Shown here in pieces: positions 2,726 to 27,965 of a stretch of DNA of 64,000 bases (the stretch's first letter is position 1; each line of letters starts with the position of its first letter). The position numbers and the translations under genes were made by a program. Below the pieces are notes generated by a model that was given only the letters and a program-made list of their open reading frames with translations, did no database searches and was not told the DNA's origin. Source of the stretch: Escherichia phage CLB_P2; the sequence record OL770107. One strand, 5' to 3'.

Positions 2726-2754
2726 GTTTACAATGCCTTTAAACATGATACTAT
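2726..2754 (+). promoter_or_regulatory. T4 early-type promoter (GTTTAC -35, TACTAT -10)
   Basis: GTTTAC at 2726-2731 and TACTAT at 2749-2754, 17-nt spacer, about 30 nt before the ATG at 2784. Confidence 0.5.
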
Positions 2755-2783
2755 AGACCTATCAACTACATGAGGAAATAAAA

Positions 2784-3152
2784 ATGGAAACTGGTAAATT
2801 TTATGTATTAGACCCTGCTGCCAAAAAACAATTCATCGCTGGTAGTCCTGATAACAATTCGCGTATGGTTAAGATTATGGAACAACATGGCAGTTCCTTT
2901 AAAGTCCTGGGCATGTGTTATATCGACGGTGATTATTTTGTCGAAAAAGTTGAAATGAAAGATGGTACCATCCTGAAGTCTGTTTATGATAATGCTGACG
3001 AGTATTTTGAACTCGCTGAATGGGAATTCAAACACTTCATAGAAGTTGATGGTGATGCTCCTGCTGTTGATACCCAAACCATTCATGTGCAGGTAAATCA
3101 TAAAAATGCGGCAGAAGTTGTTGCCTTGATTAAAGCTACCTTTGGAATTTAA
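2784..3152 (+). CDS. hypothetical early protein (122 aa), paralog of the next ORF
   Basis: ORF with SD GAGGAAA; shares a pattern with 3155..3538 (NNN.MV.I, DGD.FV.K, EYFEL.E.EF, C-terminal L...F). Confidence 0.6.
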   Translation: METGKFYVLDPAAKKQFIAGSPDNNSRMVKIMEQHGSSFKVLGMCYIDGDYFVEKVEMKDGTILKSVYDNADEYFELAEWEFKHFIEVDGDAPAVDTQTIHVQVNHKNAAEVVALIKATFGI

Positions 3153-3154
3153 AA

Positions 3155-3538
3155 ATGAAAATCGGTAAAAAATACGAACTTCGTCCTGAGCGTATCAAAT
3201 CTTTTATCAATATCAGCCCTATCAATAATAATGATATGGTTGATATTATCCAAGAAAACGGTGGATGGTTTGAAGTAAAGGACGTTATGACCTCAGATGG
3301 GGATGAATTTGTAACTAAAATCAAATGTGCTAATGGTGAGGTTTTTAGTTCGGACGGGACACTAGAGGAATATTTTGAATTGCATGAAGATGAGTTCTAT
3401 TGCTTCCGTGAATACGTTGAACAAGATGAAGTTGATGAACCCGTTTCTAAGGCCGGTGTGACCCAAATCCATTGCGTTGTCACTGAACAGAACGTTGACC
3501 AAATCATTGAACTTTTGCAAAAAACTTTTAAGGCCTAA
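3155..3538 (+). CDS. hypothetical early protein (127 aa), paralog of the previous ORF
   Basis: Tightly coupled to the upstream ORF; recognisable shared motifs. Confidence 0.6.
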   Translation: MKIGKKYELRPERIKSFINISPINNNDMVDIIQENGGWFEVKDVMTSDGDEFVTKIKCANGEVFSSDGTLEEYFELHEDEFYCFREYVEQDEVDEPVSKAGVTQIHCVVTEQNVDQIIELLQKTFKA

Positions 3539-3539
3539 T

Positions 3540-3800
3540 ATGACTAAAGATGATTTCCTGGATGCCGTAGAAAAAGCCAGTGAGAAATTTGAAGTGATGG
3601 GTGTACGAGTTCATAAAGACCGAAATTATGGGCTCGATGTCCAAACGTATTCGTTATGGCTTGTAGGTGAACATAGTCTTGTAACCAGCTTAGTTATGGG
3701 TGTTGATGCTCAACCCTTACTGGTTAAATTTAGAAGTATGGAAAAAGCTACCAAAGAAATGATTAAGCTTGGTAAATGGCTTGATAAAATTCAAAAATAA
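3540..3800 (+). CDS. hypothetical protein (86 aa)
   Basis: ATG at 3540 two nt after the upstream stop; the track ORF 3477..3800 begins inside the previous gene. Confidence 0.5.
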
Positions 3801-3802
3801 GT

Positions 3803-3836
3803 GTTTACAAGGTCTGTAGATATGATACTATAGACC
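3803..3836 (+). promoter_or_regulatory. early-type promoter with inverted repeat around the -10
   Basis: GTTTAC 3803-3808, TACTAT 3826-3831; GGTCTGTAG / CTATAGACC inverted repeat flanks the -10. Confidence 0.5.
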
Positions 3837-3859
3837 TATCAACTAATGAGGAAAATAAA

Positions 3860-4087
3860 ATGGCTAAGGTTAATATTGATATCGTTGATTTTGAATACAC
3901 TTACGAAGTTATCCGTAATCGTTATCCTTCTTTGACTATGACTTATATCAAAGACACACAATTCTGTAGTATGCAAATTGAAGTTCAAGGTCCTCTTGAA
4001 GACCTTACCCGCTTTATGGCTGATGAATATTGTGATGGTATGCATGCTGAAGACGCTGAATTTTATATGGGCTTAATTCAAAAATAA
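3860..4087 (+). CDS. hypothetical protein (75 aa)
   Basis: ORF preceded by SD GAGGAAAA and an early-type promoter. Confidence 0.55.
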
Positions 4088-4089
4088 GT

Positions 4090-4125
4090 GTTTACCTAAG
4101 GCTATGGTAGTGATACTATAGCCTT
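4090..4125 (+). promoter_or_regulatory. early-type promoter with inverted repeat
   Basis: GTTTAC 4090-4095, TACTAT 4114-4119; AAGGCTAT / ATAGCCTT inverted repeat. Confidence 0.5.
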
Positions 4126-4145
4126 ATCAACTTGAGGAGAATAAA

Positions 4146-4385
4146 ATGAAATTACAACGCGAATCAATCAAAGATTCTGAAGTTAAAGGCAAATGGTACT
4201 TCACAATCCAAGGTAACAATCCGGAAGCTCTGGAAAAAGCCGAACAAGCTTTGTGTGAAATGGGTTGGAAAGATGAGTGTGATGGGTGTCCTCTTTATGA
4301 AGATGGTAGCTCATCTGGTTTCTGGATTCACCATTCTGATGTTGACCAATTTAAAGCCGACTGGAAAGTCGCTAAGAAAGCGTGA
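4146..4385 (+). CDS. hypothetical protein (79 aa), Cys-containing
   Basis: ORF with SD GAGGAGAA upstream. Confidence 0.55.
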   Translation: MKLQRESIKDSEVKGKWYFTIQGNNPEALEKAEQALCEMGWKDECDGCPLYEDGSSSGFWIHHSDVDQFKADWKVAKKA

Positions 4386-4395
4386 GGAAAATATA

Positions 4396-4725
4396 ATGCT
4401 TACTGAATACACTTGCTTTGCTAAAGATGATGCACATCCTGAACTGATTCTTGAAGTTAAGGTTAATACACTTGAACAAAAATTTGATTGGAGCCTTTAC
4501 ATCTATCCTAAAAATAATATTGATGGTCCACAGAAATATACGCTTAACGACAAGTGCATTAGCGGTATCATTGGATACGGGTCTAGCGAAAGCAAATATT
4601 CATTAGAAGATATTCGCCAATCACGTTGTGCCGTCGCTTATTTTGATACTAGTACCATTAAATATCTTTACAAATTGGTTCTTGATATTCGCAAAGATTT
4701 TACCGCAATTAAAAAATGCAGTTAA
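4396..4725 (+). CDS. hypothetical protein (109 aa)
   Basis: ATG at 4396 preceded by GAGGA; the track ORF 4255..4725 begins inside the upstream gene. Confidence 0.5.
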   Translation: MLTEYTCFAKDDAHPELILEVKVNTLEQKFDWSLYIYPKNNIDGPQKYTLNDKCISGIIGYGSSESKYSLEDIRQSRCAVAYFDTSTIKYLYKLVLDIRKDFTAIKKCS

Positions 4726-5506
<781 letters not shown>

Positions 5507-5519
<13 letters not shown>

Positions 5520-6379
5520 TGAAACAATACCAATTTTTAATTAAAGATATCCTGGAAAATGGCTACGAAACCGACGACCGTACCGGCACCGGTACAATTG
5601 CACTGTTCGGTACTAAATTACGTTTTGATTTAACTAAAGGCTTTCCTGCAGTAACAACTAAAAAATTAGCATGGAAAGCCTGTATTGCTGAGCTCCTTTG
5701 GTTCCTTTCGGGTTCAACTAACGTTAATGACCTTCGTTTCCGTACTCACGGTTCACTAATTGGCGGTAAAACTATTTGGGACGAGAACTACGAAAATCAG
5801 GCCAAAGACCTAGGTTATCATAGTGGTGAACTTGGTCCGGTATACGGGAAACAATGGCGAGATTTTGGTGGTGTCGACCAGGTTGTAGAAATCATCAACC
5901 GCATTAAAAAGATGCCTAATGACCGACGTCAAATCGTATCTGCATGGAACCCGGCTGAAATCAACCAGATGGCTCTTCCACCGTGCCATTGTTTTTACCA
6001 GTTCAACGTTCGTAATGGACATCTTGACCTCCAGTGGTACCAACGTTCTGTTGACGTGTTCTTAGGATTGCCATTTAATATTGCCTCTTACGCCGCTCTT
6101 GTGCATATTGTAGCTAAGATGTGTAATCTTATTCCGGGCGATTTAGTGTTCTCAGGCGGCAATACACACATCTATTCTAACCACGTTGAACAATGCCAAG
6201 AAGTTCTTCGTCGTGAGCCTAAAGAGCTTTGTGAACTGGAAATTAATTGGCCTGAAGGATTCTCTGATTGGAGCACGACATTACAGCTTCATTGGGTAAC
6301 AGAGCATATGGTCCATGAAGATTTTAAACTCATTGGTTACGAATCACACCCTACCATTAAGGCTAAAATGGCTGTATGA
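5507..6379 (+). CDS. td: thymidylate synthase (290 aa), uninterrupted
   Basis: Thymidylate synthase motifs (DRTGTGT, LPPCH, FYQF, DLGPVYG); a single continuous ORF. Confidence 0.93.
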
Positions 6380-6440
6380 AAATTCAAATTGCTGGTACCT
6401 TATTTTTGGTTATTATGATTGGGCTGAATTTGGTGCTATA

Positions 6441-6734
6441 ATGAGAGTCTGTAGAGTTGTTAACAAGTATAAAGAAGATTTTGATGTCAATATCCAACGC
6501 GGAACCATGTGGGGTAATCCATTTAAAGATGGGACCCGTGAGGAAAACATCAAGAACTTTAAAGAATACTTTATTGCTAAAATAAAATCGGGTGAAATTA
6601 AAAGAGAACATCTTGAAACCCTTAGAGGTATGCGTATAGCGTGTACCTGTAAACCTAAGGACTGTCATGGGGATGTGATAGCCCTGGTTGTTAACAAACT
6701 TTTCAAAGACACGTTCTCATTAGAAGACCTATAA
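6441..6734 (+). CDS. hypothetical Cys/His-motif protein (DUF4326-like), start uncertain
   Basis: Motif GNPF...ACTCKPKDCHGD resembles a small conserved phage domain; first ATG after the td stop is at 6441 but lacks a clear SD. Confidence 0.45.
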   Translation: MRVCRVVNKYKEDFDVNIQRGTMWGNPFKDGTREENIKNFKEYFIAKIKSGEIKREHLETLRGMRIACTCKPKDCHGDVIALVVNKLFKDTFSLEDL

Positions 6735-6743
6735 ATATCAGTC

Positions 6744-6770
6744 CATGCTTAACAGGTTCTATGATAGAAT
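6744..6770 (+). promoter_or_regulatory. candidate middle (MotA-box) promoter for nrdA
   Basis: TGCTTAA at 6746-6752 resembles the MotA box; TAGAAT -10-like element 12 nt downstream; lies in an inverted repeat AGGTTCTAT / ATAGAACCT. Confidence 0.35.
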
Positions 6771-6800
6771 AATTATAGAACCTAACATATTGAGGAAATT

Positions 6801-9056
6801 ATGCAAGTACAAAAAAGTAGCGGTGTATCCCAAGATTTTGACGCACAAAAAATTATTAAAGTTCTGACTTGGGGCTGTGAAGGAACCCAAATCGACCCCT
6901 ATGAATTATACGAAGAAATCAAATCCCATCTTCGTGATGGTATGACCACCAAAGATATCCAGAATCTGACTGTTAAGGTAGCAGCCAACCTTATCTCGGT
7001 TGAAGAACCCGATTACCAATATGTTGCTGCAAAGCAACTGATGTTTGCACTGCGTAAAGAAGTTTATGGGCAGTTCGAACCGCGTAGTTTTATAGACCAT
7101 ATTTCCTATTGTGTTAACGAAGGTAAATATGACCCTGAATTGCTGTCTCGATATTCTGCAGAAGAAATTACTTTCTTAGAATCTCATATCAAGCATGAAC
7201 GCGATTTCGAATTAACCTATGCTGGTGCAATGCAGCTGAAAGAGAAATATCTGGTTAAAGATAAAACAACCGGTAAAATCTACGAAACCCCTCAGTTCGC
7301 TATTATGTGTATTGGTATGGCCTTACACCAAGACGAGCCAGGTAACCGTTTAGCACATATTATTCGTTTTTATGACGCTGTAAGTACTCGTCAGGTTTCG
7401 TTGCCTACTCCTATTATGGCAGGAGCACGTACTCCAACCCGTCAATTTAGTTCTTGTGTGGTTATTGAAGCAGGCGACTCGCTGAAATCTATTAACAAAA
7501 CCGCTAACTCAATAATTGAATACATTTCTAAACGTGCAGGTATTGGTATCAACGTTGGTATGATTCGTGCTGAAGGTTCTCGTATTGGCATGGGTGAAGT
7601 CAAGCATACCGGTGTTATTCCATTCTGGAAACATTTCCAGACTGCTGTTAAATCATGTTCACAAGGTGGAATCCGTGGCGGCGCTGCTACTGCTTATTAT
7701 CCTATTTGGCATTTGGAAGTTGAAAATCTGCTCGTTCTGAAAAACAACAAAGGTGTCGATGAGAACCGTATTCGACATATGGACTACGGAATCCAGTTGA
7801 ACGACCTTATGATGGAACGTTTCGGTAAAAATGATTACATCACGTTGTTCAGTCCTCATGAAATGGGCGGTGAGCTTTATTATTCTTATTTTGAAGACCA
7901 AGAACGTTTCCGTGAATTGTATGAAGCGGCTGAAAAAGACCCTAGCATTCGCAAGAAACGTATTAAAGCACGCGACCTCTTTGAATTGTTCATGACCGAA
8001 CGTTCAGGCACTGCACGAATTTATCCTCAGTTTGTTGATAACACTAACAACTTCACACCATTTATTCGTGAAAAGGCTCCTATTCGCCAGAGTAACTTGT
8101 GTTGTGAAATTGCTATCCCGACCACCGATGTGAATAGTCCGGACGCTGAAATCGGGTTGTGTACGCTGTCTGCATTCGTGTTGGATAACTTTGATTGGCA
8201 AGACCAAGACAAAATCAACGAACTTGCTGAAGTACAGGTACGTGCACTTGATAACTTGTTAGATTATCAAAGCTATCCTGTTCCTGAAGCTTTGAAGGCT
8301 AAGAAACGTCGTAACCTGGGTGTAGGTGTTACGAACTACGCCGCATGGTTAGCAAGCAACTTTGCTTCTTATGAAGATGCAAACGATTTAACTCACGAAT
8401 TGTTTGAGAGATTACAGTATGGACTTATCCGAGCATCAATCAAGTTGGCCGAAGAAAAAGGGCCTTGCGAGTATTATTCAGACACTAAATGGTCTCGAGG
8501 CGAGCTTCCTATCGACTGGTACAATAAAAAGATTGACCAAATCGCAGCCCCAAACTATGTTTGTGACTGGTCGTCGTTGCGGGAAGACTTGGCTAAACAT
8601 GGCATCCGTAATAGCACATTATCAGCACTTATGCCATGCGAGTCAAGCAGCCAAGTTTCCAACTCTACAAACGGTATCGAACCTCCGCGTGGTCCGGTAA
8701 GTATTAAAGAATCTAAAGAAGGTAACTTCCGTCAGGTAGTTCCTAATGTAGAACATAACCAAGGCCTCTATGATTACGCTTGGAGCCTCGCTAAGAAAGG
8801 TAATAAACCTTATCTTACCCAAGTAGCAATTATGTTGAAATGGGTTTGCCAATCTGCATCAGCGAATACGTATTACGACCCTCAGAACTATGAGAAAGGA
8901 AAAGTTCCTATGTCAGTAATGCTTGATGACCTGTTATATTTCTGGTACTTTGGTGGTAAGAACCTTTATTATCATAATACCCGTGATGGCTCTGGTACTG
9001 ACGATTACGAAATCGAAACTCCTAAAGCCGATGATTGCGCAGCTTGTAAGCTTTAA
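6801..9056 (+). CDS. nrdA: ribonucleotide reductase large subunit (751 aa)
   Basis: Class Ia RNR alpha features (N-terminal ATP-cone region, catalytic CE...NLC and C-terminal Cys pair), length and position. Confidence 0.95.
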   Translation: MQVQKSSGVSQDFDAQKIIKVLTWGCEGTQIDPYELYEEIKSHLRDGMTTKDIQNLTVKVAANLISVEEPDYQYVAAKQLMFALRKEVYGQFEPRSFIDHISYCVNEGKYDPELLSRYSAEEITFLESHIKHERDFELTYAGAMQLKEKYLVKDKTTGKIYETPQFAIMCIGMALHQDEPGNRLAHIIRFYDAVSTRQVSLPTPIMAGARTPTRQFSSCVVIEAGDSLKSINKTANSIIEYISKRAGIGINVGMIRAEGSRIGMGEVKHTGVIPFWKHFQTAVKSCSQGGIRGGAATAYYPIWHLEVENLLVLKNNKGVDENRIRHMDYGIQLNDLMMERFGKNDYITLFSPHEMGGELYYSYFEDQERFRELYEAAEKDPSIRKKRIKARDLFELFMTERSGTARIYPQFVDNTNNFTPFIREKAPIRQSNLCCEIAIPTTDVNSPDAEIGLCTLSAFVLDNFDWQDQDKINELAEVQVRALDNLLDYQSYPVPEALKAKKRRNLGVGVTNYAAWLASNFASYEDANDLTHELFERLQYGLIRASIKLAEEKGPCEYYSDTKWSRGELPIDWYNKKIDQIAAPNYVCDWSSLREDLAKHGIRNSTLSALMPCESSSQVSNSTNGIEPPRGPVSIKESKEGNFRQVVPNVEHNQGLYDYAWSLAKKGNKPYLTQVAIMLKWVCQSASANTYYDPQNYEKGKVPMSVMLDDLLYFWYFGGKNLYYHNTRDGSGTDDYEIETPKADDCAACKL

Positions 9057-9109
9057 TAAAATCTGATTATAATTGACTCATGGATGAGTCACTAACAAAT
9101 GAGAATAAC

Positions 9110-10249
9110 ATGTCTACAGTTTTTAATACTACCCCGGTTGATGTTTTAGTCGAACCGATGTTCTTTGGTTCAGGATTGGGTATTGCTCGTTACGATATCC
9201 AACGTCATAAAGTATTCGAAGAGCTTTGTGAAAAGCAGTTGAGTTTCTTCTGGCGTCCAGAGGAAGTTAACTTGATGATGGATGCTGCCCAGTTTAATAA
9301 GCTTCCTCAATTCCAACAAAATATTTTTACCAATAACCTGAAGTATCAATCACTTCTGGATAGTATCCAGGGACGTGCTCCTTCTGCTGCGCTCCAAGCA
9401 TTGATTTCAGACCCTAGCCTTGATACATGGGTGGCTACATGGACCTTTAGTGAAACCATTCACTCTCGTTCGTATACCCATATCATGCGTAACCTCTATA
9501 CAGACCCATCTAAGGTATTTGACGAAATTCTATTAGATGAAGCTATCATGAAACGTGCTGAATCTATTGGTCGTTATTATGATGATGTTATTGAGAAAAC
9601 TCGTAAATACCAAAATGCTTTAGAAGAATACCATGAGTTCAGTGAAGGTGTTAAAACCGCTAAATACGAACTAATGCGTTCTCTTTACCTCTGCCTGCAT
9701 GTAATAAACGCATTGGAAGCTATTCGTTTTTATGTATCTTTCGCATGTACCTTTAACTTCCATAAGAATATGGAAATCATGGAAGGTAATGCTAAGATTA
9801 TGAAGTTCATTGCACGTGATGAACAGCTTCACCTTAAAGGCACCCAGTACATTATCCGTCAACTCCAGCTTGGTACAGATGGTGATGAATGGGTTAAAAT
9901 TGCTCAAGAGTGTGAACAAGAAGCAGTTGATATTTTCATGGAAGTTAACCGACAAGAAAAAGAGTGGGCCGCTCACCTGTTCAAAGATGGTACTTGCCCT
10001 GGATTAAATACTCAGAACATGGGTGCTTTTGTCGATTACCTGACAGTTTCTCGTATGAAGCAATGTGGCTTACCATGTCCTATTACTGATGCTCCTACTC
10101 GCCATCCTTATCCTTGGATTCGTGAATACCTGAACTCTGATGCTGTACAGGCTGCTCCTCAGGAAGTGGAAATCAGTTCTTACCTTGTAGCACAAATTGA
10201 TAATGATGTCGATGAAAAAGTAATGGCATCATACAAGAAATATTTTTAA
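9110..10249 (+). CDS. nrdB: ribonucleotide reductase small subunit (about 379 aa), uninterrupted
   Basis: MSTVFN...EPMFFG...RYD aligns residue-for-residue with the E. coli NrdB N-terminus; start taken at that ATG (9110). An in-frame upstream ATG at 9080 lies inside a hairpin. Confidence 0.92.
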   Translation: MSTVFNTTPVDVLVEPMFFGSGLGIARYDIQRHKVFEELCEKQLSFFWRPEEVNLMMDAAQFNKLPQFQQNIFTNNLKYQSLLDSIQGRAPSAALQALISDPSLDTWVATWTFSETIHSRSYTHIMRNLYTDPSKVFDEILLDEAIMKRAESIGRYYDDVIEKTRKYQNALEEYHEFSEGVKTAKYELMRSLYLCLHVINALEAIRFYVSFACTFNFHKNMEIMEGNAKIMKFIARDEQLHLKGTQYIIRQLQLGTDGDEWVKIAQECEQEAVDIFMEVNRQEKEWAAHLFKDGTCPGLNTQNMGAFVDYLTVSRMKQCGLPCPITDAPTRHPYPWIREYLNSDAVQAAPQEVEISSYLVAQIDNDVDEKVMASYKKYF

Positions 10250-10254
10250 GGAAT

Positions 10255-10276
10255 GGGGCTTCGGCCCCTTATTGCT
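10255..10276 (+). terminator. hairpin/terminator after nrdB
   Basis: GGGGC-TTCG-GCCCC followed by TTATTGCT. Confidence 0.5.
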
Positions 10277-10690
10277 ATGAAAGAAATCGCAGATGAATTT
10301 AGCTTTATCAAGTACGTTACACTGGAGCTCCAAACAGATGCTACTATAGCCCCTATCACGGTTCCAAATAAACAAAATGTCATATATGCTATAGCGGTTG
10401 ATGATATACTAGTCTACATCGGGAAGACTAAAAATCTTCGTAAGCGCATCAACTACTACCGAACCGCCATTAATCGTAAGGACCAAACGTCGGATTCGAC
10501 CAAGTCCATTCTGATTCATGAAGCATTAATGGCTGGTAAAAAGGTAGAGTTCTATGCTAGACAGTGCTTTAATCTGTCGATGACTAACGAACTTGGAACT
10601 ATGTCAGTTGAGACCATGTCTCTTGAAGAGCCAATGTTCATAAAGAAATTTAATCCACCTTGGAATACCCAACATAGGATAAAGCAATGA
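10277..10690 (+). CDS. denA: endonuclease II, GIY-YIG family (137 aa)
   Basis: GIY-YIG-like motif (IYAIAVDD...VYIGKTKNLRKRINYY); about 137 aa from the ATG at 10277, close to T4 EndoII; follows nrdB as in T4. Confidence 0.75.
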   Translation: MKEIADEFSFIKYVTLELQTDATIAPITVPNKQNVIYAIAVDDILVYIGKTKNLRKRINYYRTAINRKDQTSDSTKSILIHEALMAGKKVEFYARQCFNLSMTNELGTMSVETMSLEEPMFIKKFNPPWNTQHRIKQ

Positions 10691-11835
10691 TTGAATTATA
10701 TGATAACTTGATGACTTTGGTTAAAAACTCGACTAAATCTAAGTTCTTCTTTAAAGACTTCCAGAGTGCGCTAGGAGTCAACTATCGCATCTTTAGTTAT
10801 AACTATGCATCGTACAGTGATTGGTTGGAAGACGGCGCACTAGAGTGCCGAGGCATTATGTTTGAAATGGACGAGAATGGTCCTGTACGTATCGCTGCTC
10901 GTCCTATGCAAAAGTTCTTTAATCTCGATGAAAACCCACTGACTATTGGTTTGGATTTATCACAAGAAAATATTGATTTGGTTATGGCCAAGGAAGATGG
11001 TTCCTTGATTTCTACCTTCATGGATAGACAATATCTTTCTGTTAAATCTAAAGGCTCTATCCATTCATCGATGGTACATGATTCTTTACGTTTCCTTCGT
11101 CTCCCTGAAAACGAGGCCTTCGCTGCTCGTTTAGAAGAAATTACTAAAGCAGGCTATACATGTAACCTCGAGTATGTTTCGCCTACTAACCGTATTGTGC
11201 TGGCATACCAAGAAACAAACCTTATCTTACTGAACGTTCGTAATAACGAAACAGGTGAGTATATCCCTTACGCTGAACTGTTTAAAGATGGCGCTCTGCG
11301 TAAGCATTTGGTTAAAAGCTATGAACTCGCTGAAGGTGATTTTGTTGACAATATCCGTAAACAAGAGGGTATTGAAGGCTTTATCTTTGTACTTAAAGAT
11401 GGCACGTTCTTTAAACTCAAAACCGCTTGGTATAGCGCACTGCATCATACCAAAGATTCCATTAACAATAACGAACGTTTGTTTGAAGTTGTAGTGGCTG
11501 GTGGAACCGATGACCTCCGAGGTTTGTTCAGTACTGATTCATTTGCTATTGAGAAAATCAATGCATTTGAACGTATTCATTTAGACTACTTAGAACAGTC
11601 CTTGGCTTTGTTAGAAGCAGCATATTCTCAGCTCAAGGGTCGTGACCGTAAAGACTACGCTGTTACCGGTCAGTTAATCCTCAAAGACTTCCCAGGGCTG
11701 TTCTCTATTCTTATGCAGGCGTACGTAGGCGGTATTAATTATGATACGGTCGTAGACCAGATTAACTCTGTGTTCTTGAAAAATCATAAGGCCCAAATCC
11801 CTGAAAAATATTTGAAAGAAATTGTGATAGAGTAG
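10687..11835 (+). CDS. rnlA: RNA ligase 1 (382 aa)
   Basis: Strong match to remembered T4 Rnl1 (YRIFSYNYASYSDW, ECRGIMFEMD, lysine-containing ligase motif). Confidence 0.92.
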   Translation: MIELYDNLMTLVKNSTKSKFFFKDFQSALGVNYRIFSYNYASYSDWLEDGALECRGIMFEMDENGPVRIAARPMQKFFNLDENPLTIGLDLSQENIDLVMAKEDGSLISTFMDRQYLSVKSKGSIHSSMVHDSLRFLRLPENEAFAARLEEITKAGYTCNLEYVSPTNRIVLAYQETNLILLNVRNNETGEYIPYAELFKDGALRKHLVKSYELAEGDFVDNIRKQEGIEGFIFVLKDGTFFKLKTAWYSALHHTKDSINNNERLFEVVVAGGTDDLRGLFSTDSFAIEKINAFERIHLDYLEQSLALLEAAYSQLKGRDRKDYAVTGQLILKDFPGLFSILMQAYVGGINYDTVVDQINSVFLKNHKAQIPEKYLKEIVIE

Positions 11836-11863
11836 TTTACATCTCCTCATGATGTGTTAGTAT
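11835..11863 (+). promoter_or_regulatory. early-type promoter
   Basis: GTTTAC 11835-11840, TAGTAT 11858-11863, 17-nt spacer, then SD AGGAGAAAA and ATG at 11894. Confidence 0.5.
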
Positions 11864-11893
11864 AGACTTACCAACTAATGAGGAGAAAACAAA

Positions 11894-12394
11894 ATGAATA
11901 TGCAAATGATTACTAACGAAATGGTTGTTAAAGCTTTTGGTGACTCTACTGACGGTATCCAAGTTTTTAAAGGTTCTCGTGCAGTAGGGTACCTAACCGA
12001 TCTTCGTGTTACTTTAGCTAAAAATGCTAAAAAGAAAATTAAGCAAAAAGAATACTCTACCCGTTATGCAGAAGAAAAGCGTGAAGCCATGCCTGAAGCT
12101 GTTAACTCTATGGTTGAGTTTCTCCAAAACAACCTTTCCAAGTATGATGCTGAGGTATTCATTAATATCAGCCAACCTAATGTCAAAATCGCAGGAATCA
12201 CTTTCTATTTGATTTGCGACCCATTAAGCGATAAGTTTAATCGCCTTGGCATTTCGAGTCCTTACCATACCGCTGAAGAATTGTGCGTGATGTTCGAAAC
12301 GTATAAAATCCAGTGTGAAAACCCTAAAACGGTTCTTATCAACTCCCTGTCACGTGATGACATCATCGAGATTATTACCAAATGTCTAAATTAA
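11894..12394 (+). CDS. alc: Alc-like protein (host transcription shutoff), 166 aa
   Basis: Size and position between rnlA and the spanin/pseT cluster match T4 alc; no motif verified. Confidence 0.5.
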   Translation: MNMQMITNEMVVKAFGDSTDGIQVFKGSRAVGYLTDLRVTLAKNAKKKIKQKEYSTRYAEEKREAMPEAVNSMVEFLQNNLSKYDAEVFINISQPNVKIAGITFYLICDPLSDKFNRLGISSPYHTAEELCVMFETYKIQCENPKTVLINSLSRDDIIEIITKCLN

Positions 12395-12735
12395 GTATTT
12401 ACCTTTTAGCTGGAGCCATTGTAGTAGGTGCTTACAGTCTTATTTCGTATCAATCAAGCCGTATTGATACATTAACTGAAGAACTGAAAACAACCCAGCA
12501 AACAGCTAAACAGAACGCCGAAGCTGTTGATGACCTTCGTGGTCAATATTCAGATATTGAATTCCGTACTACTGAAATGAATGCCAGACTGGATAAAATT
12601 AAGGTAGAAAATGAAAAGCTCCGTAAAGATTCGAAGAAGGCGCACGTGGTGGCAAGTAAGCCAGGATTGGTCGAAAAACAAATCAACAAGTCCTTCGATT
12701 CCTTTACAGAAGACTTCAGGAGCATCACAGAATGA
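12382..12735 (+). CDS. i-spanin (inner-membrane spanin), 117 aa
   Basis: N-terminal transmembrane segment (LLAGAIVVGAYSLISY) followed by a charged coiled-coil region; overlaps the downstream lipoprotein ORF, as spanin pairs do (T4 pseT.3-like). Confidence 0.7.
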   Translation: MSKLSIYLLAGAIVVGAYSLISYQSSRIDTLTEELKTTQQTAKQNAEAVDDLRGQYSDIEFRTTEMNARLDKIKVENEKLRKDSKKAHVVASKPGLVEKQINKSFDSFTEDFRSITE

Positions 12736-13022
12736 TTAAATTGACTGCTGTAATGTTATCTATTGGATTGCTAGTTGGATGTGCCCAGGATGTTCCTGTA
12801 GCGCCTAAACAACAACTCCACCCTTCATGGCCACAACCTATTGCCGAACATAATGTTAAGTGGCAGGTTAAGGTAATCGATGGTAAGGCTTGGGTCGGTA
12901 TGCCGTTTGAAGACTCACAAGAACATCGTATTTGGTTGAATGACGTAAAAAGATATGTACAAGACCAGAAATCTATGTTATGTTATTATCGTTCCGGGTT
13001 AAAAGAGGAGAAGTGCAAATGA
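12732..13022 (+). CDS. o-spanin (outer-membrane lipoprotein spanin), 96 aa
   Basis: Signal peptide with lipobox LLVGC, Pro-rich periplasmic region, C-terminal Cys (T4 pseT.2-like). Confidence 0.7.
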   Translation: MIKLTAVMLSIGLLVGCAQDVPVAPKQQLHPSWPQPIAEHNVKWQVKVIDGKAWVGMPFEDSQEHRIWLNDVKRYVQDQKSMLCYYRSGLKEEKCK

Positions 13023-13123
13023 TCGAGGCTTGTGCTGACGGGTGGGATATCGTTCGATTTGGTTTTGCATGCTTTTGTTTTGGAATCGTGTTCAGCATGT
13101 GTATGAACGGTATTTTTGGAAAG
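13019..13123 (+). CDS. possible small hydrophobic peptide (34 aa)
   Basis: ATG overlapping the o-spanin stop (ATGA); product MIEACADGWDIVRFGFACFCFGIVFSMCMNGIFGK. Too short for the ORF track. Confidence 0.25.
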
Positions 13124-13189
13124 TAGTGTACAAACTCTTGGGAGCAGAGTATAATGCTCCTACGGATTATAAAAATTGAGGAAATGACT

Positions 13190-17681: not shown

Positions 17682-17683
17682 TA

Positions 17684-17708
17684 TGCTTTAAGAATAGCGT
17701 GTTATTAT
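17684..17708 (+). promoter_or_regulatory. candidate middle (MotA-box) promoter for gene 31
   Basis: TGCTTTA at 17684-17690 matches the MotA-box core; TATTAT 12 nt downstream; about 30 nt before the gene 31 ATG. Confidence 0.4.
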
Positions 17709-17739
17709 TAATCTATCAACAAAACAACATGGATTAAAT

Positions 17740-18063
17740 ATGGAACTTCCTATTAAAGCGGTTGGAGAATATGTTATTCTCGTTTCCGAACCAAAACAAG
17801 CTGGCGATGAAGAAACTACTGCATCTGGTATCGTTATTGGCAAACTTCATCAAGGTGAAATCCCTGAACTTTGTGAAATTTATTCTGTAGGACCTGATGT
17901 CCCTGAAGGTTTTTGTGAAGTAGGCGATTTGACTCCACTTCCTGTTGGTAAGATTGCTAACGTGCCTCACCCTTTAGTTGCATTGGGTATTAAACAGCCT
18001 AAAGAAATTAAACAGAAATTCGTTACCTGTCACTATAAAGCTATTCCGTGTCTTTATAAGTGA
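17740..18063 (+). CDS. 31: co-chaperonin gp31 (GroES-like), 107 aa
   Basis: [21 protein letters not shown]...[20 protein letters not shown]...[23 protein letters not shown] matches remembered T4 gp31. Confidence 0.92.
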
Positions 18064-18223
18064 TATAAATAATAATATGGATTGGCTGATGCCATACAGA
18101 GCTTTGCTGGTGTATGGGGTTAGCTAATCCTAAGCGGTGGACTACAACTGAGAGACTTGCCGAAAGGAAGTGAAATTCAGAAGAACGTGTCCACCAATCT
18201 TTATCTCGAATTGAGAATTTAAA

Positions 18224-18472
18224 ATGAACAAACATCTGAATCACGCTCTTGAACTGCAACGCAACGCTTGGAACAACGGCCACGAAAACTATGGTGCATC
18301 TATTGATGTTGAAGCCGAAGCACTGGAAATCCTGCGTTATTTCAAACATCTTAATCCTGCTCAGGCTACTCTGGCTGCTGAACTGGAAGCAAAAGATGAA
18401 CTGAAATATGCTAAGCCTTTGGCTTCAGCAGCTCGTAAAGCAGTACGTCATTTTATTATTACCCTGAAGTAA
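18224..18472 (+). CDS. rIII: rIII-like lysis-inhibition accessory protein (82 aa)
   Basis: 82 aa, the same size and position (after gene 31) as T4 rIII; no motif verified. Confidence 0.55.
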   Translation: MNKHLNHALELQRNAWNNGHENYGASIDVEAEALEILRYFKHLNPAQATLAAELEAKDELKYAKPLASAARKAVRHFIITLK

Positions 18473-18825
18473 AATCGAGGAGCCGTCGAACTGTCTGATT
18501 AATGATTTGCGAATCATTATAGTTTTAAGACCCCGGCAGTTTTACGGTGTACCTCTTGAATGTTATTTTATAGCGGCAAGTGCATGCTACCCCGAGGTGA
18601 TGGCCAATCGGGAGTACGCCTCAAGGCCTATATACCCATCAGTATATATCTTATCCTCGAGAAATCGAACCCGGAACCTTTAAGCTAACGGTGTGCAACA
18701 GATAAGAGCTATGATGACGAGGTTTATGGTTATCCTGTCGTTAAATATCCGAAACCTATGTTCCCCTTGAGGGCTTGCGCAGGCAACGCCAATAAGTCCT
18801 GCATTCTAATTTAAGAGATTTAAAA
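18473..18825 (+). other. about 350-nt region without a convincing ORF; candidate structured leader or ncRNA
   Basis: All frames are interrupted; candidate ORFs are 42 aa or shorter and lack a ribosome-binding site; several local inverted repeats. Confidence 0.3.
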
Positions 18826-18987
18826 ATGGCTAAGAAAGAAGTTAAAGTAGTTGACGGAACCTCTAAACGCGCTGGTTACAAGCGTGCGTCTAACAAGCGT
18901 ATCAATCAGGTAGTTGATAAGCTTCAAGCTCGTGCTCGTGCAGTATTGCGTGCAGATGCTGCTTGCTTCGGTAAAGTTATTGCATAA
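18826..18987 (+). CDS. small basic protein (53 aa)
   Basis: ATG at 18826; Lys/Arg-rich product MAKKEVKVVDGTSKRAGYKRASNKR...; followed directly by a strong terminator. Too short for the ORF track. Confidence 0.4.
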   Translation: MAKKEVKVVDGTSKRAGYKRASNKRINQVVDKLQARARAVLRADAACFGKVIA

Positions 18988-18992
18988 GTTAT

Positions 18993-19020
18993 GGGACTCT
19001 TCGGAGTCCCATTTTTGTTT
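18993..19020 (+). terminator. rho-independent terminator
   Basis: GGGACTC-TTCG-GAGTCCC hairpin followed by ATTTTTGTTT. Confidence 0.7.
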
Positions 19021-19038
19021 CTAAATCTTTAAAAAAAG

Positions 19039-19067
19039 GTATACATCTCCGGTAGGCATGATACTAT
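19039..19067 (+). promoter_or_regulatory. early-type promoter (degenerate -35 GTATAC, -10 TACTAT)
   Basis: 17-nt spacing; followed by a conserved 40-nt leader. Confidence 0.4.
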
Positions 19068-19108
19068 AGACATGTACCAAATAATACGAAAACAAACTGG
19101 AGAATAAA

Positions 19109-19477
19109 ATGAAAATCAATCTTAACTCATACATCAAAGGTAAAGACCACGACGGTTACAAAGCCATTGAAACTAAAGAGATGCAATGGCGCTTGTACAA
19201 AGAACAATTTGAATTTGTAGGTTGTATGACTCCTGAAGGTCCTTCCGATGACTTCTCTTGGAAAATTTTGGTAACAAACTTTTTTACTGGCGATACCTAC
19301 GAACTGAAAACTATCATAACCGGTAAGATTCGTTGTAAGACCTATGAAGATGAAGAAACCGGTTATTCTGAAGATGTTACATGGTATCAAAATGGTCGTA
19401 TCACTACAGATAACCTGATCGAAAAAATGAATGCCAAAGGTGAATTAAATTTAGATAATTGGATTAAAGTTGCATAA
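19109..19477 (+). CDS. hypothetical protein (122 aa)
   Basis: ORF with SD GGAG; the 40-nt leader up to the ATG is identical to that of the next ORF. Confidence 0.6.
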   Translation: MKINLNSYIKGKDHDGYKAIETKEMQWRLYKEQFEFVGCMTPEGPSDDFSWKILVTNFFTGDTYELKTIITGKIRCKTYEDEETGYSEDVTWYQNGRITTDNLIEKMNAKGELNLDNWIKVA

Positions 19478-19481
19478 AACG

Positions 19482-19521
19482 GTTTACTTTGGTACAGGTT
19501 GTGTTATTATAGACCTGTACC
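19482..19521 (+). promoter_or_regulatory. early-type promoter with inverted repeat
   Basis: GTTTAC 19482-19487, TATTAT 19505-19510; GGTACAGGT / ACCTGTACC inverted repeat. Confidence 0.5.
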
Positions 19522-19551
19522 AAATAATACGAAAACAAACTGGAGAATAAA

Positions 19552-19917
19552 ATGAACTACATCAACTTCGAACGTAAATATGTTTCTAACGGTATCGCTG
19601 GTTCTTCTGAAGTTATTTGTCTGTGGAAACACAACAACGGCACAGTGTGTGAAATCGAACAGTGCATGACTCCTAACTACGTTTATATGCGCTTTGAAAA
19701 TGGTATCACAGTTTCAATCACTATGGAAGGTTCTACTTTTAAAATCGCTTTGGACGATGATTTCCGTCAACGTGATTTAGGTACCCATCCTTGCTGGAAC
19801 GGTTCTAATCGTAAGCTTCTGGTTAAAACCTGGATTCGTCACATCCTGAGCAACCGTGCTAAACCTGAACACCTGGAAGCAATCTTTGATGTAGTTCTGA
19901 ATGAATTTGATATCTAA
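19552..19917 (+). CDS. hypothetical protein (121 aa)
   Basis: ORF with the same leader and SD as 19109..19477. Confidence 0.6.
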   Translation: MNYINFERKYVSNGIAGSSEVICLWKHNNGTVCEIEQCMTPNYVYMRFENGITVSITMEGSTFKIALDDDFRQRDLGTHPCWNGSNRKLLVKTWIRHILSNRAKPEHLEAIFDVVLNEFDI

Positions 19918-19958
19918 TCTTAAAAATGGAGGCTTCGGCCTCCTTTGAGGAAAATATT

Positions 19959-20246
19959 ATGTTTATGACCACTTATTTCGATACTCGTAAAAATTTCTGT
20001 GAAGTTGTTTTCTCTAAGGCAGGTAAAGATGTTCCTGCTGAAAAACAGCCTACTCGTGAATCCATTAAGGCTTATGCTGATGTGGTTTGTCCAGTAGAAT
20101 TCCGTACAGTCAATGGTCGTGACACCCTAGCAATCACTAAGCTCAACCATGATATTAACATCGACCCTAGCGCTGCCCGTGAAGTCAATACTTCTGACAT
20201 CTACGGTGGTAATGTTAAATCACATGGATTTCAGATGAGGTTCTAA
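19959..20246 (+). CDS. hypothetical protein (95 aa)
   Basis: ATG at 19959 after SD GAGGA; the upstream in-frame ATG at 19926 lies inside the hairpin GGAGGC-TTCG-GCCTCC. Confidence 0.5.
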   Translation: MFMTTYFDTRKNFCEVVFSKAGKDVPAEKQPTRESIKAYADVVCPVEFRTVNGRDTLAITKLNHDINIDPSAAREVNTSDIYGGNVKSHGFQMRF

Positions 20247-20440
20247 TGCAACTATTCTTATCACAAACCGTTCAGCTAAAAGGCATAGGTATTCCTGGTA
20301 TGATTTCAAAGGTTTTACCTGCTTTTAAATTAGGTAATGCTACTATTAAAGAAGCCTACACCGTCCTATGGGTCGATGGCACTGAAGACGTTCGCATGGG
20401 TTCTGAATTGTCTGTAATCAAATGTTTGAAGCGAGGATAA
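20246..20440 (+). CDS. hypothetical protein (64 aa)
   Basis: ORF coupled to neighbours. Confidence 0.45.
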   Translation: MQLFLSQTVQLKGIGIPGMISKVLPAFKLGNATIKEAYTVLWVDGTEDVRMGSELSVIKCLKRG

Positions 20441-20441
20441 C

Positions 20442-20654
20442 ATGTTTAGGAAATTGATTCAGAAATTATTAGGTACGGAAATGGTCGAAGTGACTTATCG
20501 TGTAACCGACGTAAGTCCATGGGCCCGGAATATTGAACCATATACTAAAACAATTAAAATGCTGAAATCTGACGGTGGATTATCTATTAAAGACCGTCTT
20601 CCCGGTTATGGACATTGGGCTGATGTCGAAATTATAAGTGTCAAAGATGTCTGA
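20442..20654 (+). CDS. hypothetical protein (70 aa)
   Basis: ORF coupled to neighbours. Confidence 0.45.
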   Translation: MFRKLIQKLLGTEMVEVTYRVTDVSPWARNIEPYTKTIKMLKSDGGLSIKDRLPGYGHWADVEIISVKDV

Positions 20655-21105
20655 GTTAGAAATTAGAAGTAACTTTCCATGGCCATCATGCGCATTAAGT
20701 AACTTTGCTAAATGGCCTTTCGTTATGGATGGTATCCAATTTGGTGGACTCGAAGGATTCCTCCAAGGATGTAAGGTGAAAAATGTTGAACAACAAAAAC
20801 GTATATTTAGGATGTCCGGGTTGGACGCGCAAAAAGCTGGACGAGCTTATGCTAGAGCTGCGGACCGTGGGACGCTTTTCTGGCTTGGAATTCCCTTTTC
20901 AAGATACTCTGCAGCATGGAAAGAGTTGTATACAAATGCATATTTTGAAGCAGCGCTCCAGAACAAAGGATTCCGAGAAGCTTTACAAGCCACTAAAGGT
21001 AAGGTTTTAAAGCATTCAATGGCAAGCCACCTCAAAGAATGTGATACAATACTAACTGAAAAAGAGTTTATCGACATCCTAAACAAATTGAGAGATTTAT
21101 TATGA
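20638..21105 (+). CDS. NADAR / YbiA-like (DUF1768) domain protein (155 aa)
   Basis: Pattern SNFAKWPF..DG..F...EGFLQ..K and ALQATKGKVLKHS parallels E. coli YbiA (SNFAAWPI..DG..W...EHYFQAQKF, ALLATAPAKLVEH) as remembered. Confidence 0.55.
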   Translation: MSKMSELEIRSNFPWPSCALSNFAKWPFVMDGIQFGGLEGFLQGCKVKNVEQQKRIFRMSGLDAQKAGRAYARAADRGTLFWLGIPFSRYSAAWKELYTNAYFEAALQNKGFREALQATKGKVLKHSMASHLKECDTILTEKEFIDILNKLRDLL

Positions 21106-25809: not shown

Positions 25810-25812
25810 ATA

Positions 25813-27936
25813 ATGGAAAATTTAAACGAAGTTTTTGATAGTGATTCCGCTAAAAACTATCCAGTAACAAATCTTAAGCCAGGCTCAGGTATCCCACAGA
25901 TTTTCTCTATCCAAGCACCAGGTAATGATAACCTGGTTGCTCGTATGGTATCTTATGCGTCTCAAGGAGACGCTATTAAAATGGTTAAGCCTGGCGACAA
26001 ATATGTCCACGTTATTCTAATGAGTTTGTCAAGCAAGGGTGCTCCGGCTGAACTCAAAGGTGGGCTTGGTTCCGACCCGCTTGGTGCATTGAATACTATT
26101 TTCGATACGATATATGAACAAGTAAACAAACTTAAAATGGATGCAGTTTTGTTCCGTTTCCCTACCAAGAAAATGAAAGGTAAGGGTCCTACTGTTCAGC
26201 GGGTATTAGCTCGTTTGGTGATGGCACGTACCGGTGGTAAGTTTAAAGTTGTTGATAACATGTTCCAATTCAGTGGAAAACATACCTATGTTCTTTTAGT
26301 ACGTCGCGGCACTAATATCGAAGATATCAAGGGTATGCCTGAAATTGATGCTGACCTTTATACCAAGGTTGAGTCTAAAGTTGGTGAAGTTTATGTTTCT
26401 AAGAAAACTGGCCGGGCCGTAAGTAAGGTCGAAGCCGTGGCGGCATCTATTGCACAGGTTGAAGAGAAACGTACCGATAAGGCTGTTATCTCTCGTACTA
26501 AGATTTCTCGTCGTATGGCTGCAGCAGCACAGTATTCTACTGCCGAACCTGAAACTTTATCCCCTAAAGAATTGCAGGTTTATAATGAGTTTGAAGCTTC
26601 TGTACCTGTTCATTCGGCTGAAGGTCCTGAGAACGAAGGTATTGAACAAATTAGCCAGAACTTTAAAAAAGGTGCTATTACTAAAATGCGTCAGGCCTCT
26701 CAGTTTAAATCTAAGAGTGAGGACCTTGCCAACTTTAGATACACCATTGCTCTCACACACGCTTTAATGACTGATAGTAAATTTAAACTAAATTATGCTA
26801 ATAGAGATAAACAAGGGTTTGAAATTTACTCTAATAATATGGCATTTTTTAATACGGAAGTCGATAGACTTTTAAGCGGCCTTTCTCAAATCAATACTAC
26901 CAATAGTCTGGATATTATTAAGAGAATTGTTAATAACCTGAGTGCCCGTTTTCAGGGGTCTCCTTCAGAGAAAGCATCCCGAATTGCTTTCGCTATGGAA
27001 GCCGTTTATAAACTGATTAACGATTCTATTAGCGATGCATATGCTTATTCAGGCGAGCTCATTAAACCTAAGGGCTTGACCAAAGACGAAAGTAATGCCA
27101 TTATTGAATATTGTGCGGCTGAATATGCTCCTATGAACTTATTCCTTTTAGGTAAACCTGAATCCGAAAACAATACAACAGCTATTAAATTGATTAAGGA
27201 TTTAGACTCAGCATTTACCAAGGGTATTAAACTTCCTAAAGGTACTATTTTGTATCGTGGTCAGGATTTACCATACAAAATTCTGCGCCATAATATTGAT
27301 AACAAAACCTTTTACTTTAAGAACTTTGTATCCGCTTCATTAAAGCCTAATATCTTTGGTGAATTTGGTAAAAATTATATGGCCCTCGACAACCAAGCAG
27401 TTTTTGTTGGTGATGAAGGTTCTTTATCCTCCGCCGATGAGTTGTTTAAATTGGCCAGTGGTAGTTCATCTGACGTAGGTGAAGTTGATGATGAAGAGGT
27501 AGAATGGGAAGAAGACGAGTTTGGTAATCCAATTGCACCTGAAGGCCCTGCAGACAGGATTGCTGAAATTGGTATGGTTATTCGAGGTGCTGAAGCAGTT
27601 AAAGTTATCGCTCCTGGTGACCTTACAGAATATGCCGAAGAAGCGGAAATTATCCTTCCGCGCGGATTATTGTTGAAGGTTGATAAAGTAGCAGCTTTTG
27701 CTATGAATGATAGGGTATCTCACAAATACCTTATGGAAGCTACAGTGACATCTCCTTCAGAACTCAGTGAGTCCGTTTACGATGGTGACCATCTGATGGA
27801 AACCGGCGAAGTTAAATTGATGAATGGGTTTAAAGAATTCCTAGTTTCAGAATCTGTTTCAGAAAGTAACGAGGCTATGGAAATCCTTGCTGCATCTTTG
27901 GACATCTCTTCTTTACCAAATAAATTCAAAATGTAG
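25813..27936 (+). CDS. Alt-like ADP-ribosyltransferase, copy 2 (707 aa), tandem paralog
   Basis: Shares the first ~220 aa with copy 1 (LVARMVSYAS.GDAIK, HVILMSLS.KG.PAELKGGLG, FRFPTKKMKG.GP) and the motifs YRGQ, FVSASL, EAEIILPRG; central region divergent with an acidic insert. Confidence 0.85.
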   Translation: MENLNEVFDSDSAKNYPVTNLKPGSGIPQIFSIQAPGNDNLVARMVSYASQGDAIKMVKPGDKYVHVILMSLSSKGAPAELKGGLGSDPLGALNTIFDTIYEQVNKLKMDAVLFRFPTKKMKGKGPTVQRVLARLVMARTGGKFKVVDNMFQFSGKHTYVLLVRRGTNIEDIKGMPEIDADLYTKVESKVGEVYVSKKTGRAVSKVEAVAASIAQVEEKRTDKAVISRTKISRRMAAAAQYSTAEPETLSPKELQVYNEFEASVPVHSAEGPENEGIEQISQNFKKGAITKMRQASQFKSKSEDLANFRYTIALTHALMTDSKFKLNYANRDKQGFEIYSNNMAFFNTEVDRLLSGLSQINTTNSLDIIKRIVNNLSARFQGSPSEKASRIAFAMEAVYKLINDSISDAYAYSGELIKPKGLTKDESNAIIEYCAAEYAPMNLFLLGKPESENNTTAIKLIKDLDSAFTKGIKLPKGTILYRGQDLPYKILRHNIDNKTFYFKNFVSASLKPNIFGEFGKNYMALDNQAVFVGDEGSLSSADELFKLASGSSSDVGEVDDEEVEWEEDEFGNPIAPEGPADRIAEIGMVIRGAEAVKVIAPGDLTEYAEEAEIILPRGLLLKVDKVAAFAMNDRVSHKYLMEATVTSPSELSESVYDGDHLMETGEVKLMNGFKEFLVSESVSESNEAMEILAASLDISSLPNKFKM

Positions 27937-27965
27937 TTTACAACACCACAAGGATGTGGTACTAT
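27936..27965 (+). promoter_or_regulatory. early-type promoter
   Basis: GTTTAC 27936-27941, TACTAT 27960-27965; CCACA-AGGA-TGTGG hairpin in the spacer. Confidence 0.45.

Follow-up and report, generated by a model that had tools for sequence, protein, structure and literature searches.

Why should the early promoters of a phage be set within inverted repeats, and in which molecule would such repeats fold? The question was raised by a 64,000-nucleotide (nt) stretch of Escherichia phage CLB_P2 (record OL770107), here called the window. In this window, a reading of the letters alone (the original prediction) had listed eight plus-strand early promoters with GTTTAC as the -35 element, most of them with a short inverted repeat around the -10 element. 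The answer that we favor, with moderate confidence, is that these sites are cassettes of the promoter-early stem-loop (PeSL) type, whose stems act on RNA that reads through from the gene upstream.

The window was 100% identical to the Dhakavirus CLBP2 record OZ035781.1, and had 95-98% identity to JS98, JS10, and dhaeg, T4-like coliphages of the genus Dhakavirus; gene names were taken from the JS98 and dhaeg annotations. Positions 1-28,300 constitute the early region on the + strand (rnh ... 32, frd, td, nrdAB, denA, rnlA, alc, pseT, cd, 31, rIII, 30.x, 30, alt), beyond which late genes follow on the - strand. The pattern GTTTAC-N16-19-TAYWAT gave seven matches on the + strand of the window and none on the - strand, with 0.23 expected; this number was reached by none of 100 shuffles, and the enrichment was 30-fold. 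All eight sites of the original prediction were found where it had placed them. Six of them (2726, 3803, 4090, 19482, 27936, and 42948) fitted its pattern exactly, whereas the -10 elements of the other two, TAGTAT at 11835 and TATAGT at 15757, were only close variants. A looser scan brought in three sites beyond that list, 46974 (an exact match), 13126 (GTGTAC...TATAAT), and 19039 (GTATAC...TACTAT), and the number of early-type promoters in the window was 11 with close variants of the motif included. TGn (an extended -10) and an A/T-rich upstream stretch were present at all of them, both being typical of T4 early promoters (PMC1524935, PMC2988021). For genome-wide comparisons, the full 171,787-base pair (bp) genome was rebuilt from the identical record, and 45 promoters with a downstream start codon were collected. 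Forty-two of 43 perfect GTTTAC hits lay on the + strand and one on the - strand. Judged by sequence, the designation as early promoters was appropriate: the sites are putative strong early promoters of the sigma-70-like, T4-like type, and not late-type TATAAATA promoters.

The inverted repeats quoted in the original prediction could be confirmed letter by letter, with a G.T pair in one of them. Its statement that a repeat brackets the -10 in most cases was fair, as this was so at four of the eight cited sites and also at 11835, where, however, the 3' arm of the stem was the downstream Shine-Dalgarno (SD) sequence. As for the other cited sites, 27936 had a hairpin within the spacer, and 2726 and 42948 had no significant stem. 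Compared with shuffles, seven of the 11 window promoters (3803, 4090, 11835, 13126, 15757, 19039, and 19482) had stem z-scores between -2.8 and -5.5. In a swap control, which keeps the promoter composition, the -35 and spacer of one promoter were fused to the -10-to-ATG part of another. The native promoters of the window folded with a mean of -12.8 kcal/mol versus -8.5 kcal/mol for the chimeras (permutation p=1.5e-4), and the 45 promoters of the genome with -11.9 versus -8.3 kcal/mol (z -9.5, p<=1e-5). Shuffles of their own spacers were beaten at p<=0.05 by 26 of the 45 promoters (25 in a re-run with 300 shuffles). The repeats were thus enriched over shuffled controls, the comparison on which the original prediction had staked its claim, and we conclude that they are a selected feature, not chance.

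The arms of paralogous promoters differed yet remained complementary (GGTCTGTAG/CTATAGACC, AAGGCTAT/ATAGCCTT, GGTAGGACT/AGTCCTACC, and GGGAGCA/TGCTCC at 13126 versus GGGACC/GGTCCC at its paralogue at genome position 111367). When orthologous positions were compared in JS98, FB, IME341, VR25, and pEC-M719, the same gene was often preceded by another cassette with its own compensated stem. The frd.2a promoter had no stem in the window and GGGAAC/GTTCCC in three relatives, the alt.-3 promoter had CCACA/TGTGG here versus GCAC/GTGC in VR25 and pEC-M719, and the orf212 promoter was of type A (see below) here, with a type C hairpin, CACCAT/ATGGTG, in VR25 and pEC-M719. In the stem at 3803, JS98 had an A-U pair in place of a G.U pair of the window.

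Three geometries were distinguished. In type A, a 5' arm in the spacer pairs with a 3' arm composed of the -10 end and the discriminator. In type B, a spacer arm starting with CTCC right after the -35 pairs with the SD sequence of the next gene about 25-40 nt downstream. Type C is a short hairpin within the spacer, often accompanied by CCTT or CTTCC just before +1 that is able to pair with the SD sequence. The transcription start was taken as the 7th nucleotide past the -10, usually the A of ATCAAC; start sites were thus predicted, not mapped. In every case, the 5' arm was upstream of the -10, and the predicted +1 was located after or inside the 3' arm (between the arms at 11835). With its 5' arm in the -35/-10 spacer and thus upstream of +1, the stem is missing from the promoter's own RNA and can form only in RNA reading through from upstream or in single-stranded DNA. 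The stem at the 5' end of the transcript, as the original prediction had it, was therefore excluded. Its other suggestion, a stem in DNA, held in so far as single-stranded DNA could fold, but a symmetric cruciform was disfavored by the arm distance of type B and by the mismatches. In 52 helices from 79 distinct promoters of this genome and five relatives, found with a helix finder that gives G.T and A.C equal treatment, internal G.T pairs outnumbered A.C pairs by 20 to 3 (p=5e-4), and by 9 to 1 in the CLBP2 genome alone. On the other strand of a cruciform, the G.T pairs would appear as A.C mismatches, which points to the + sense single strand as the one under selection. Promoters varied in the register of the stem relative to the -10, and gaps introduced by MAFFT fell inside the 3' arm; therefore an anchor-based pair count was used and no single consensus structure was derived.

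The presence of a stem was related to the transcription arriving from upstream. A co-directional upstream open reading frame (ORF) without a terminator was found at 24 of 25 stem-positive versus 13 of 20 stem-negative promoters (p=0.015), and the median distance between the upstream stop codon and the -35 was 5 nt versus 43.5 nt (p=0.004). The stop codon lay 2-16 nt before the -35 in 22 of the 25 stem-positive promoters, with the SD sequence and ATG 24-49 nt past the -10, and the stems began 10-25 nt after the stop codon. A classical terminator with a UUCG loop and T run was located upstream of one of 25 stem-positive versus five of 20 stem-negative promoters under a strict rule (p=0.07), and of one of 25 versus seven of 20 when two imperfect stems were included (p=0.015). 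Among the stemless promoters of the window, 2726 follows the gene 32 terminator and 42948 follows a gene on the opposite strand. The embedded stems resemble intrinsic terminators in being G+C-containing hairpins shortly after a stop codon; unlike these, they have no U tract, whereas the true terminators of the window have UUCG loops and T runs. A terminator pattern scan of positions 2000-21000 called none of the embedded stems; next to promoters, it called only 2689-2708 and 18991-19012. With no T tract and no call by the scan, the embedded stems were rejected as canonical intrinsic terminators, and most likely they deal with incoming transcripts in another manner.

The pairing between spacers and SD sequences showed what this manner might be in a part of the promoters. 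CTCC or CCTC occurred next to the -35 in 15 of 45 spacers, and GGAG or GAGG in none of the 45. In 11 promoters whose spacer has CTCC and whose SD sequence has GGAG, 3.6 of the five flanking positions paired in native combinations versus 2.2 of five in swapped ones (p=8e-4), and covarying examples were CTCCtgtag/ctacaGGAG, CTCCagtag/ctactGGAG, CTCCtcatg/catgaGGAG, and CTCCattag/ctaatGGAG. The mean predicted probability that the SD sequence is unpaired was 0.35 in read-through RNA versus 0.65 in RNA of the promoter itself (Wilcoxon 3e-8). The values were split, with predicted values of about 0.00 in read-through RNA versus 0.6-0.9 in the own transcript for type B; at 11835 the two values were 0.00 and 0.81, and at 19039 they were 0.04 and 0.67. 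The SD sequence of the type A promoter 19482 was predicted to be free in read-through RNA (0.94). Values below 0.3 in read-through RNA and above 0.6 in the own transcript were predicted for 13 of the 45 promoters. We tentatively suggest that about one-third of the early promoters may carry an anti-SD sequence in the spacer or just before +1, such that the gene would be translated only from RNA of its own promoter, whereas read-through RNA would leave it silent or only coupled. If this is true, the origin of the transcript would act as a switch for translation across the genome, the mechanism known for T4 e, soc, 49, and I-TevI would be generalized from a few late promoters to early promoters, and PeSL stems would be, at least in part, translational and not termination devices. 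In those four T4 genes, the SD sequence is sequestered in long transcripts, and a late promoter in the hairpin frees translation (PMC3014915).

PeSLs were described in RB49 and phi1, with about 50 per genome, as a strong early promoter with a stem-loop that lies mostly between the -35 and -10 or overlaps the -10 and contains G-T pairs; they were interpreted as a terminator or attenuator combined with a recombination linker, and mini-circles were detected (Arbiol 2010, PMC2839356). Early transcripts are known to run into downstream genes (PMC2988021). In the reading that we favor, the stems would distinguish read-through transcripts from promoter-proximal ones, because only RNA from the upstream gene contains both arms. 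In type B and in the type C variant with CTTCC (11835 for alc, 19039 for 30.8, and weakly 27936), the anti-SD sequence in the spacer or discriminator would pair with the next SD sequence, so that efficient translation of the gene would be confined to its own immediate-early transcript, to the exclusion of the long read-through RNA. Type A stems (3803, 4090, 13126, 15757, and 19482) would act as compact hairpins 10-25 nt after the upstream stop that leave the SD sequence free. For the upstream cistron, they would most likely provide a 3' end, insulation, or attenuation and so stand in for the classical terminator that is seen where the upstream gap is longer. Exchange of gene cassettes between phages may also draw on the homology of the repeated cassettes.

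Several points weigh against this reading. Many of the 45 promoters are paralogous copies and so not fully independent, several of the G.T counts are inherited between orthologues, and read-through and folding are predicted, as are the +1 positions. The computation singled out no specific function for type A. Type B helices could be partly opened by a ribosome that ends at a stop codon only 2-8 nt before the -35, and the outcome in vivo may then be coupling and not silencing. Mean SD accessibility did not differ between native and chimeric read-through RNA (0.35 versus 0.35); because of this equality, the argument for masking is based on the covariation and on the bimodal split, and an overall shift does not contribute to it.

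That the repeats have no function and are a by-product of constraints on promoter sequence and of promoter cassettes duplicated recently is very improbable. TACTATAGACCTATCAAC and GTTTACATCTCC are common to many promoters, which indicates paralogy, and chimeras also folded fairly well (-8.3 kcal/mol), but the swap control removes the shared composition and still gave a z of -9.5, complementarity was kept while arm sequences varied, and stem presence tracked the context. The genome-wide swap test, together with the pairing of the CTCC/GGAG flanks, largely refuted it. We give almost no credence to the version of the original prediction in which the promoter's own transcript has at its 5' end a stem that controls stability or initiation. 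The 3' arms at 15757 and 19482 do run a few nucleotides beyond the predicted +1; the spacer arm, never being transcribed, would nevertheless require start sites more than 25 nt upstream of the -10. An element acting as DNA, in which a cruciform or single-strand hairpin modulates the open complex or targets recombination or structure-specific nucleases, appears quite improbable. PeSL stems blocked a sequencing polymerase on single-stranded template and mini-circle crossovers mapped within PeSLs (PMC2839356), and type A stems with 4-nt loops, as at 4090, could extrude. The loops, on the other hand, are mostly 8-10 nt and about 25-40 nt for type B, the excess of G.T pairs implies A.C mismatches on the complementary strand, and a dependence on incoming transcription would not be expected of such an element.

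The published view of PeSLs, that the stem-loops are terminators or attenuators isolating each cassette and that the cassettes serve mainly as recombination linkers for gene shuffling, is somewhat unlikely to hold here. It agrees with the finding that an RB49 stem-loop placed before lacZ cut expression about as much as rrnB T1 (PMC2839356), with the complementary distribution of embedded stems and classical upstream terminators, with the start of the stems shortly past the upstream stop codon, and with cassette swaps at orthologous positions (the FB frd.3 promoter, and the gene between 19039 and 19482 in JS98 and FB). It does not agree with the missing T tracts and the scan that found two classical terminators but no embedded stem, and pairing over about 25-40 nt that ends in an SD sequence, as in type B, is not terminator anatomy. 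As for the linker part, 21 of 108 breakpoint edges against the five relatives lay within 50 nt of a promoter versus 6.7 for random positions, but breakpoints were not enriched at promoters over random gene boundaries (21 versus 18.8 expected, P=0.33). Translational coupling, in which a ribosome ending at the upstream stop melts the outer CTCC:GGAG pairs of the helix that masks the SD sequence in read-through RNA, so that downstream translation is proportional to upstream translation, is unlikely. With a spacing of 2-8 nt between the stop and the -35, as in most type B promoters, CTCC comes to lie about 10-16 nt from the stop, at the edge of the ribosome footprint, and the SD:anti-SD pairs are the outermost of the helix, nearest the stop codon. 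The footprint argument is borderline at 7-8 nt, three type B promoters (19039, 83954, and 153780) have the stop 54-62 nt away, and type A is left unexplained. We retain the reading in which the stems would act on read-through RNA, by SD masking in types B and C and as an insulating or 3'-end hairpin in type A.

Table 1. Early-type promoters of the window, their embedded stems, and the classical terminators next to them (window positions; +1 predicted; z relative to shuffles)
Feature	Positions	Strand	Motif	Gene or context	Type and arms	Folding and details
Classical intrinsic terminator	2689-2708	+	GGGAAGACttcgGTCTTCCC + T6	After gene 32 homologue, directly upstream of promoter 2726		
Promoter	2726-2754	+	GTTTAC-17-TACTAT	frd.2a homologue	No significant stem	z -1.4
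Promoter	3803-3837	+		frd.3	A: 3810-3819 AGGTCTGTAG (spacer) / 3828-3837 CTATAGACCT (-10 end + discriminator)	+1 at 3838; -14.0 kcal/mol, z -4.75; repeat originally quoted as GGTCTGTAG/CTATAGACC, one G.T pair
Promoter	4090-4126	+		frd.1	A: 4097-4109 / 4114-4126 (whole -10 + discriminator), GUGA loop	-18.0 kcal/mol, z -5.53; repeat originally quoted as AAGGCTAT/ATAGCCTT, extends to 13 pairs
Promoter	11835-11886	+		alc	B: anti-SD 11842-11850 TCTCCTCAT (spacer) / 11878-11886 ATGAGGAGA (alc SD)	+1 at 11870; alc ATG at 11894; z -4.83
Promoter	13126-13166	+	GTGTAC-18-TATAAT	Hypothetical gene	A: 13136-13146 / 13155-13166, GGGAGCA/TGCTCC core	z -2.82
Promoter	15757-15796	+	GTTTAC-18-TATAGT	orf212 homologue	A: 15767-15777 CGGTAGGACTG / 15786-15796 TAGTCCTACCG	-18.0 kcal/mol, z -3.95; repeat originally quoted as GGTAGGACTG/TAGTCCTACC, 11 pairs
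Classical intrinsic terminator	18991-19012	+	ATGGGACTCttcgGAGTCCCAT + T run	After 30.9, upstream of promoter 19039		
Promoter	19039-19103	+	GTATAC-17-TACTAT	30.8 homologue	B: 19046-19053 TCTCCGGT / 19096-19103 ACTGGAGA (SD)	ATG at 19109; z -2.83
Promoter	19482-19524	+	GTTTAC-17-TATTAT	30.7 homologue	A: core GGTACAGGT 19491-19499 / ACCTGTACC 19513-19521	Extends to 19488-19503 / 19508-19524, 16 pairs; -18.6 kcal/mol, z -4.96
Promoter	27936-27985	+		alt.-3	C: spacer hairpin 27945-27950 ACCACA / 27955-27960 TGTGGT, 6 bp	CCTTA 27968-27972 just upstream of +1 (27972) pairs with TGAGG 27981-27985 in SD; stem marginal, z -1.8, spacer shuffle p=0.01
Promoter	42948-42977	+		70-amino acid ORF and RNA ligase 2 (rnlB); upstream neighbor on opposite strand	No stem	z -0.27
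Promoter (orphan, early-type)	46974-47003	+	GTTTAC-18-TACTAT with TGn	Between minus-strand gp24-like and gp23-like genes		

The features are collected in Table 1. Promoter 2726 has no embedded stem because the gene 32 terminator sits just upstream. The classical terminators of the phage were nearly all of the form AAGGnnCC-UUCG-GGnnCCTT followed by a T run, a repeated family of their own, and were placed just upstream of early promoters without an embedded stem. Promoter 46974 is oriented antisense to gene 23, toward which it points across the reverse complement of the gene 23 terminator hairpin (47021-47038), and no start of an ORF was found downstream of it; the region 46974-47045 (+) may be a source of an 'anti-late' antisense RNA. 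Adjoining the gp23 homologue (47055-48614) are two tandem gp24-like genes for head vertex or major-head-fold proteins at 44368-45648 and 45648-46931 (-).

The link to recombination made in the original prediction has a counterpart in the PeSL literature (PMC2839356) and in single cassette swaps, but not in the breakpoint counts given above. In FB, frd.3 is preceded by a copy of the frd.2a promoter. A gene of 122 amino acids between promoters 19039 and 19482 (the 30.8 homologue, 19109-19477, +) was kept at 96% identity in IME341, VR25, and pEC-M719 and was replaced by unrelated sequence in JS98 and FB, and the two flanking cassettes are paralogous with identical leaders. This replacement reads as a textbook case of cassette exchange between neighboring promoter elements. 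A general role of the cassettes in gene shuffling is plausible, without specific support in the window. In the same part of the early region, the gap of about 350 nt between rIII and 30.9 (18473-18825, +) had no ORF longer than 58 amino acids. It showed 93-95% identity over 135-360 nt to phages so distant that their coding DNA otherwise gives no match (phages of the Klebsiella JD18 type, Enterobacter PG7, and a record named Campylobacter phage A145). No Rfam match was found for this gap even at E<=1; its RNA fold had -97 kcal/mol (z -2.3), and we regard it as a candidate for a conserved non-coding RNA or a mobile non-coding element.

Dedicated regulators for the timing of early genes are few in T4-like phages. 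If the stems signal to the ribosome or to enzymes of RNA decay where an mRNA originated, this would explain how densely packed early genes have individual expression windows, and the published reading of PeSLs as promoter-terminator cassettes would be refined. With a size of about 60 nt, a modular build, and natural diversity, these compact elements could serve as insulated expression cassettes. The motif is also a reliable marker of early transcription units in Dhakavirus genomes, which at present carry no promoter annotation.

Elements of this kind have been described as PeSLs but have not been catalogued in JS98-like phages; JS98 was named only for PeSL-like sequences near gene 43 (PMC2839356). 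Rfam at the gathering threshold and ARAGORN gave no match over the whole window, and the embedded stems belong to no curated RNA family. Long-range pairing between spacer and SD sequence at early promoters had no description in the searchable literature, although older T4 work outside its scope may hold single-gene cases. The likeness to the PeSLs of RB49 and phi1 extends to the whole arrangement: an intergenic cassette with an AT-rich stretch containing the upstream stop, a sigma-70-like early promoter, a stem-loop mostly between the -35 and -10 or over the -10 with G-T pairs, and the next SD sequence and ATG, in dozens of copies per genome that are all on the early strand. The Dhakavirus cassettes differ in the consensus (GTTTAC...TAYWAT with TGn versus TTGACA...TATAAT), in stems that are not GGGG...CCCC and are not followed by a T tract, and in adjoining many conserved genes (alc, frd.1, frd.3, alt.-3) and not only ORFans. 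About one-third of them pair with the downstream SD sequence over about 25-40 nt, which places them outside the five published subclasses.

PeSLs were later extended to T4 and PST, with TTTACW-N17-TAYWAT and stem-loops just upstream of the promoter, and to KVP40 and nt-1 (Comeau 2014, PMC4122927). The T4/PST elements have the same promoter consensus as those described here, and promoters 2726 and 19039, which stand behind a hairpin terminator, match the PST arrangement; the stem-loops there lie just upstream of the promoter, whereas in this Dhakavirus they are mostly embedded. Embedded stems were nevertheless found upstream of dmd, motB, motB.2, and rIIA.1 in the first 50 kb of T4 (NC_000866), which the comparison covered, with weak enrichment (z -2.2, 4 of 14). 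On the - strand of that record, they were of type A at 20612 (dmd, 15 bp) and 7215 (motB), of type B at 8218 (motB.2), and of type C at 2458 (rIIA.1), and the rIIA.1 promoter had the same CCACAaggaTGTGG spacer hairpin as window promoter 27936. The closest functional parallel for 11835 and 19039 would be T4 e, soc, 49, and I-TevI: in the predicted folds, a long RNA hides the SD sequence, and a start between the arms gives a short RNA with a free SD sequence. The late (gp55) promoters of these T4 genes delay translation, whereas the internal promoter here is an early sigma-70 promoter, and its effect would be to limit translation to the immediate-early transcript.

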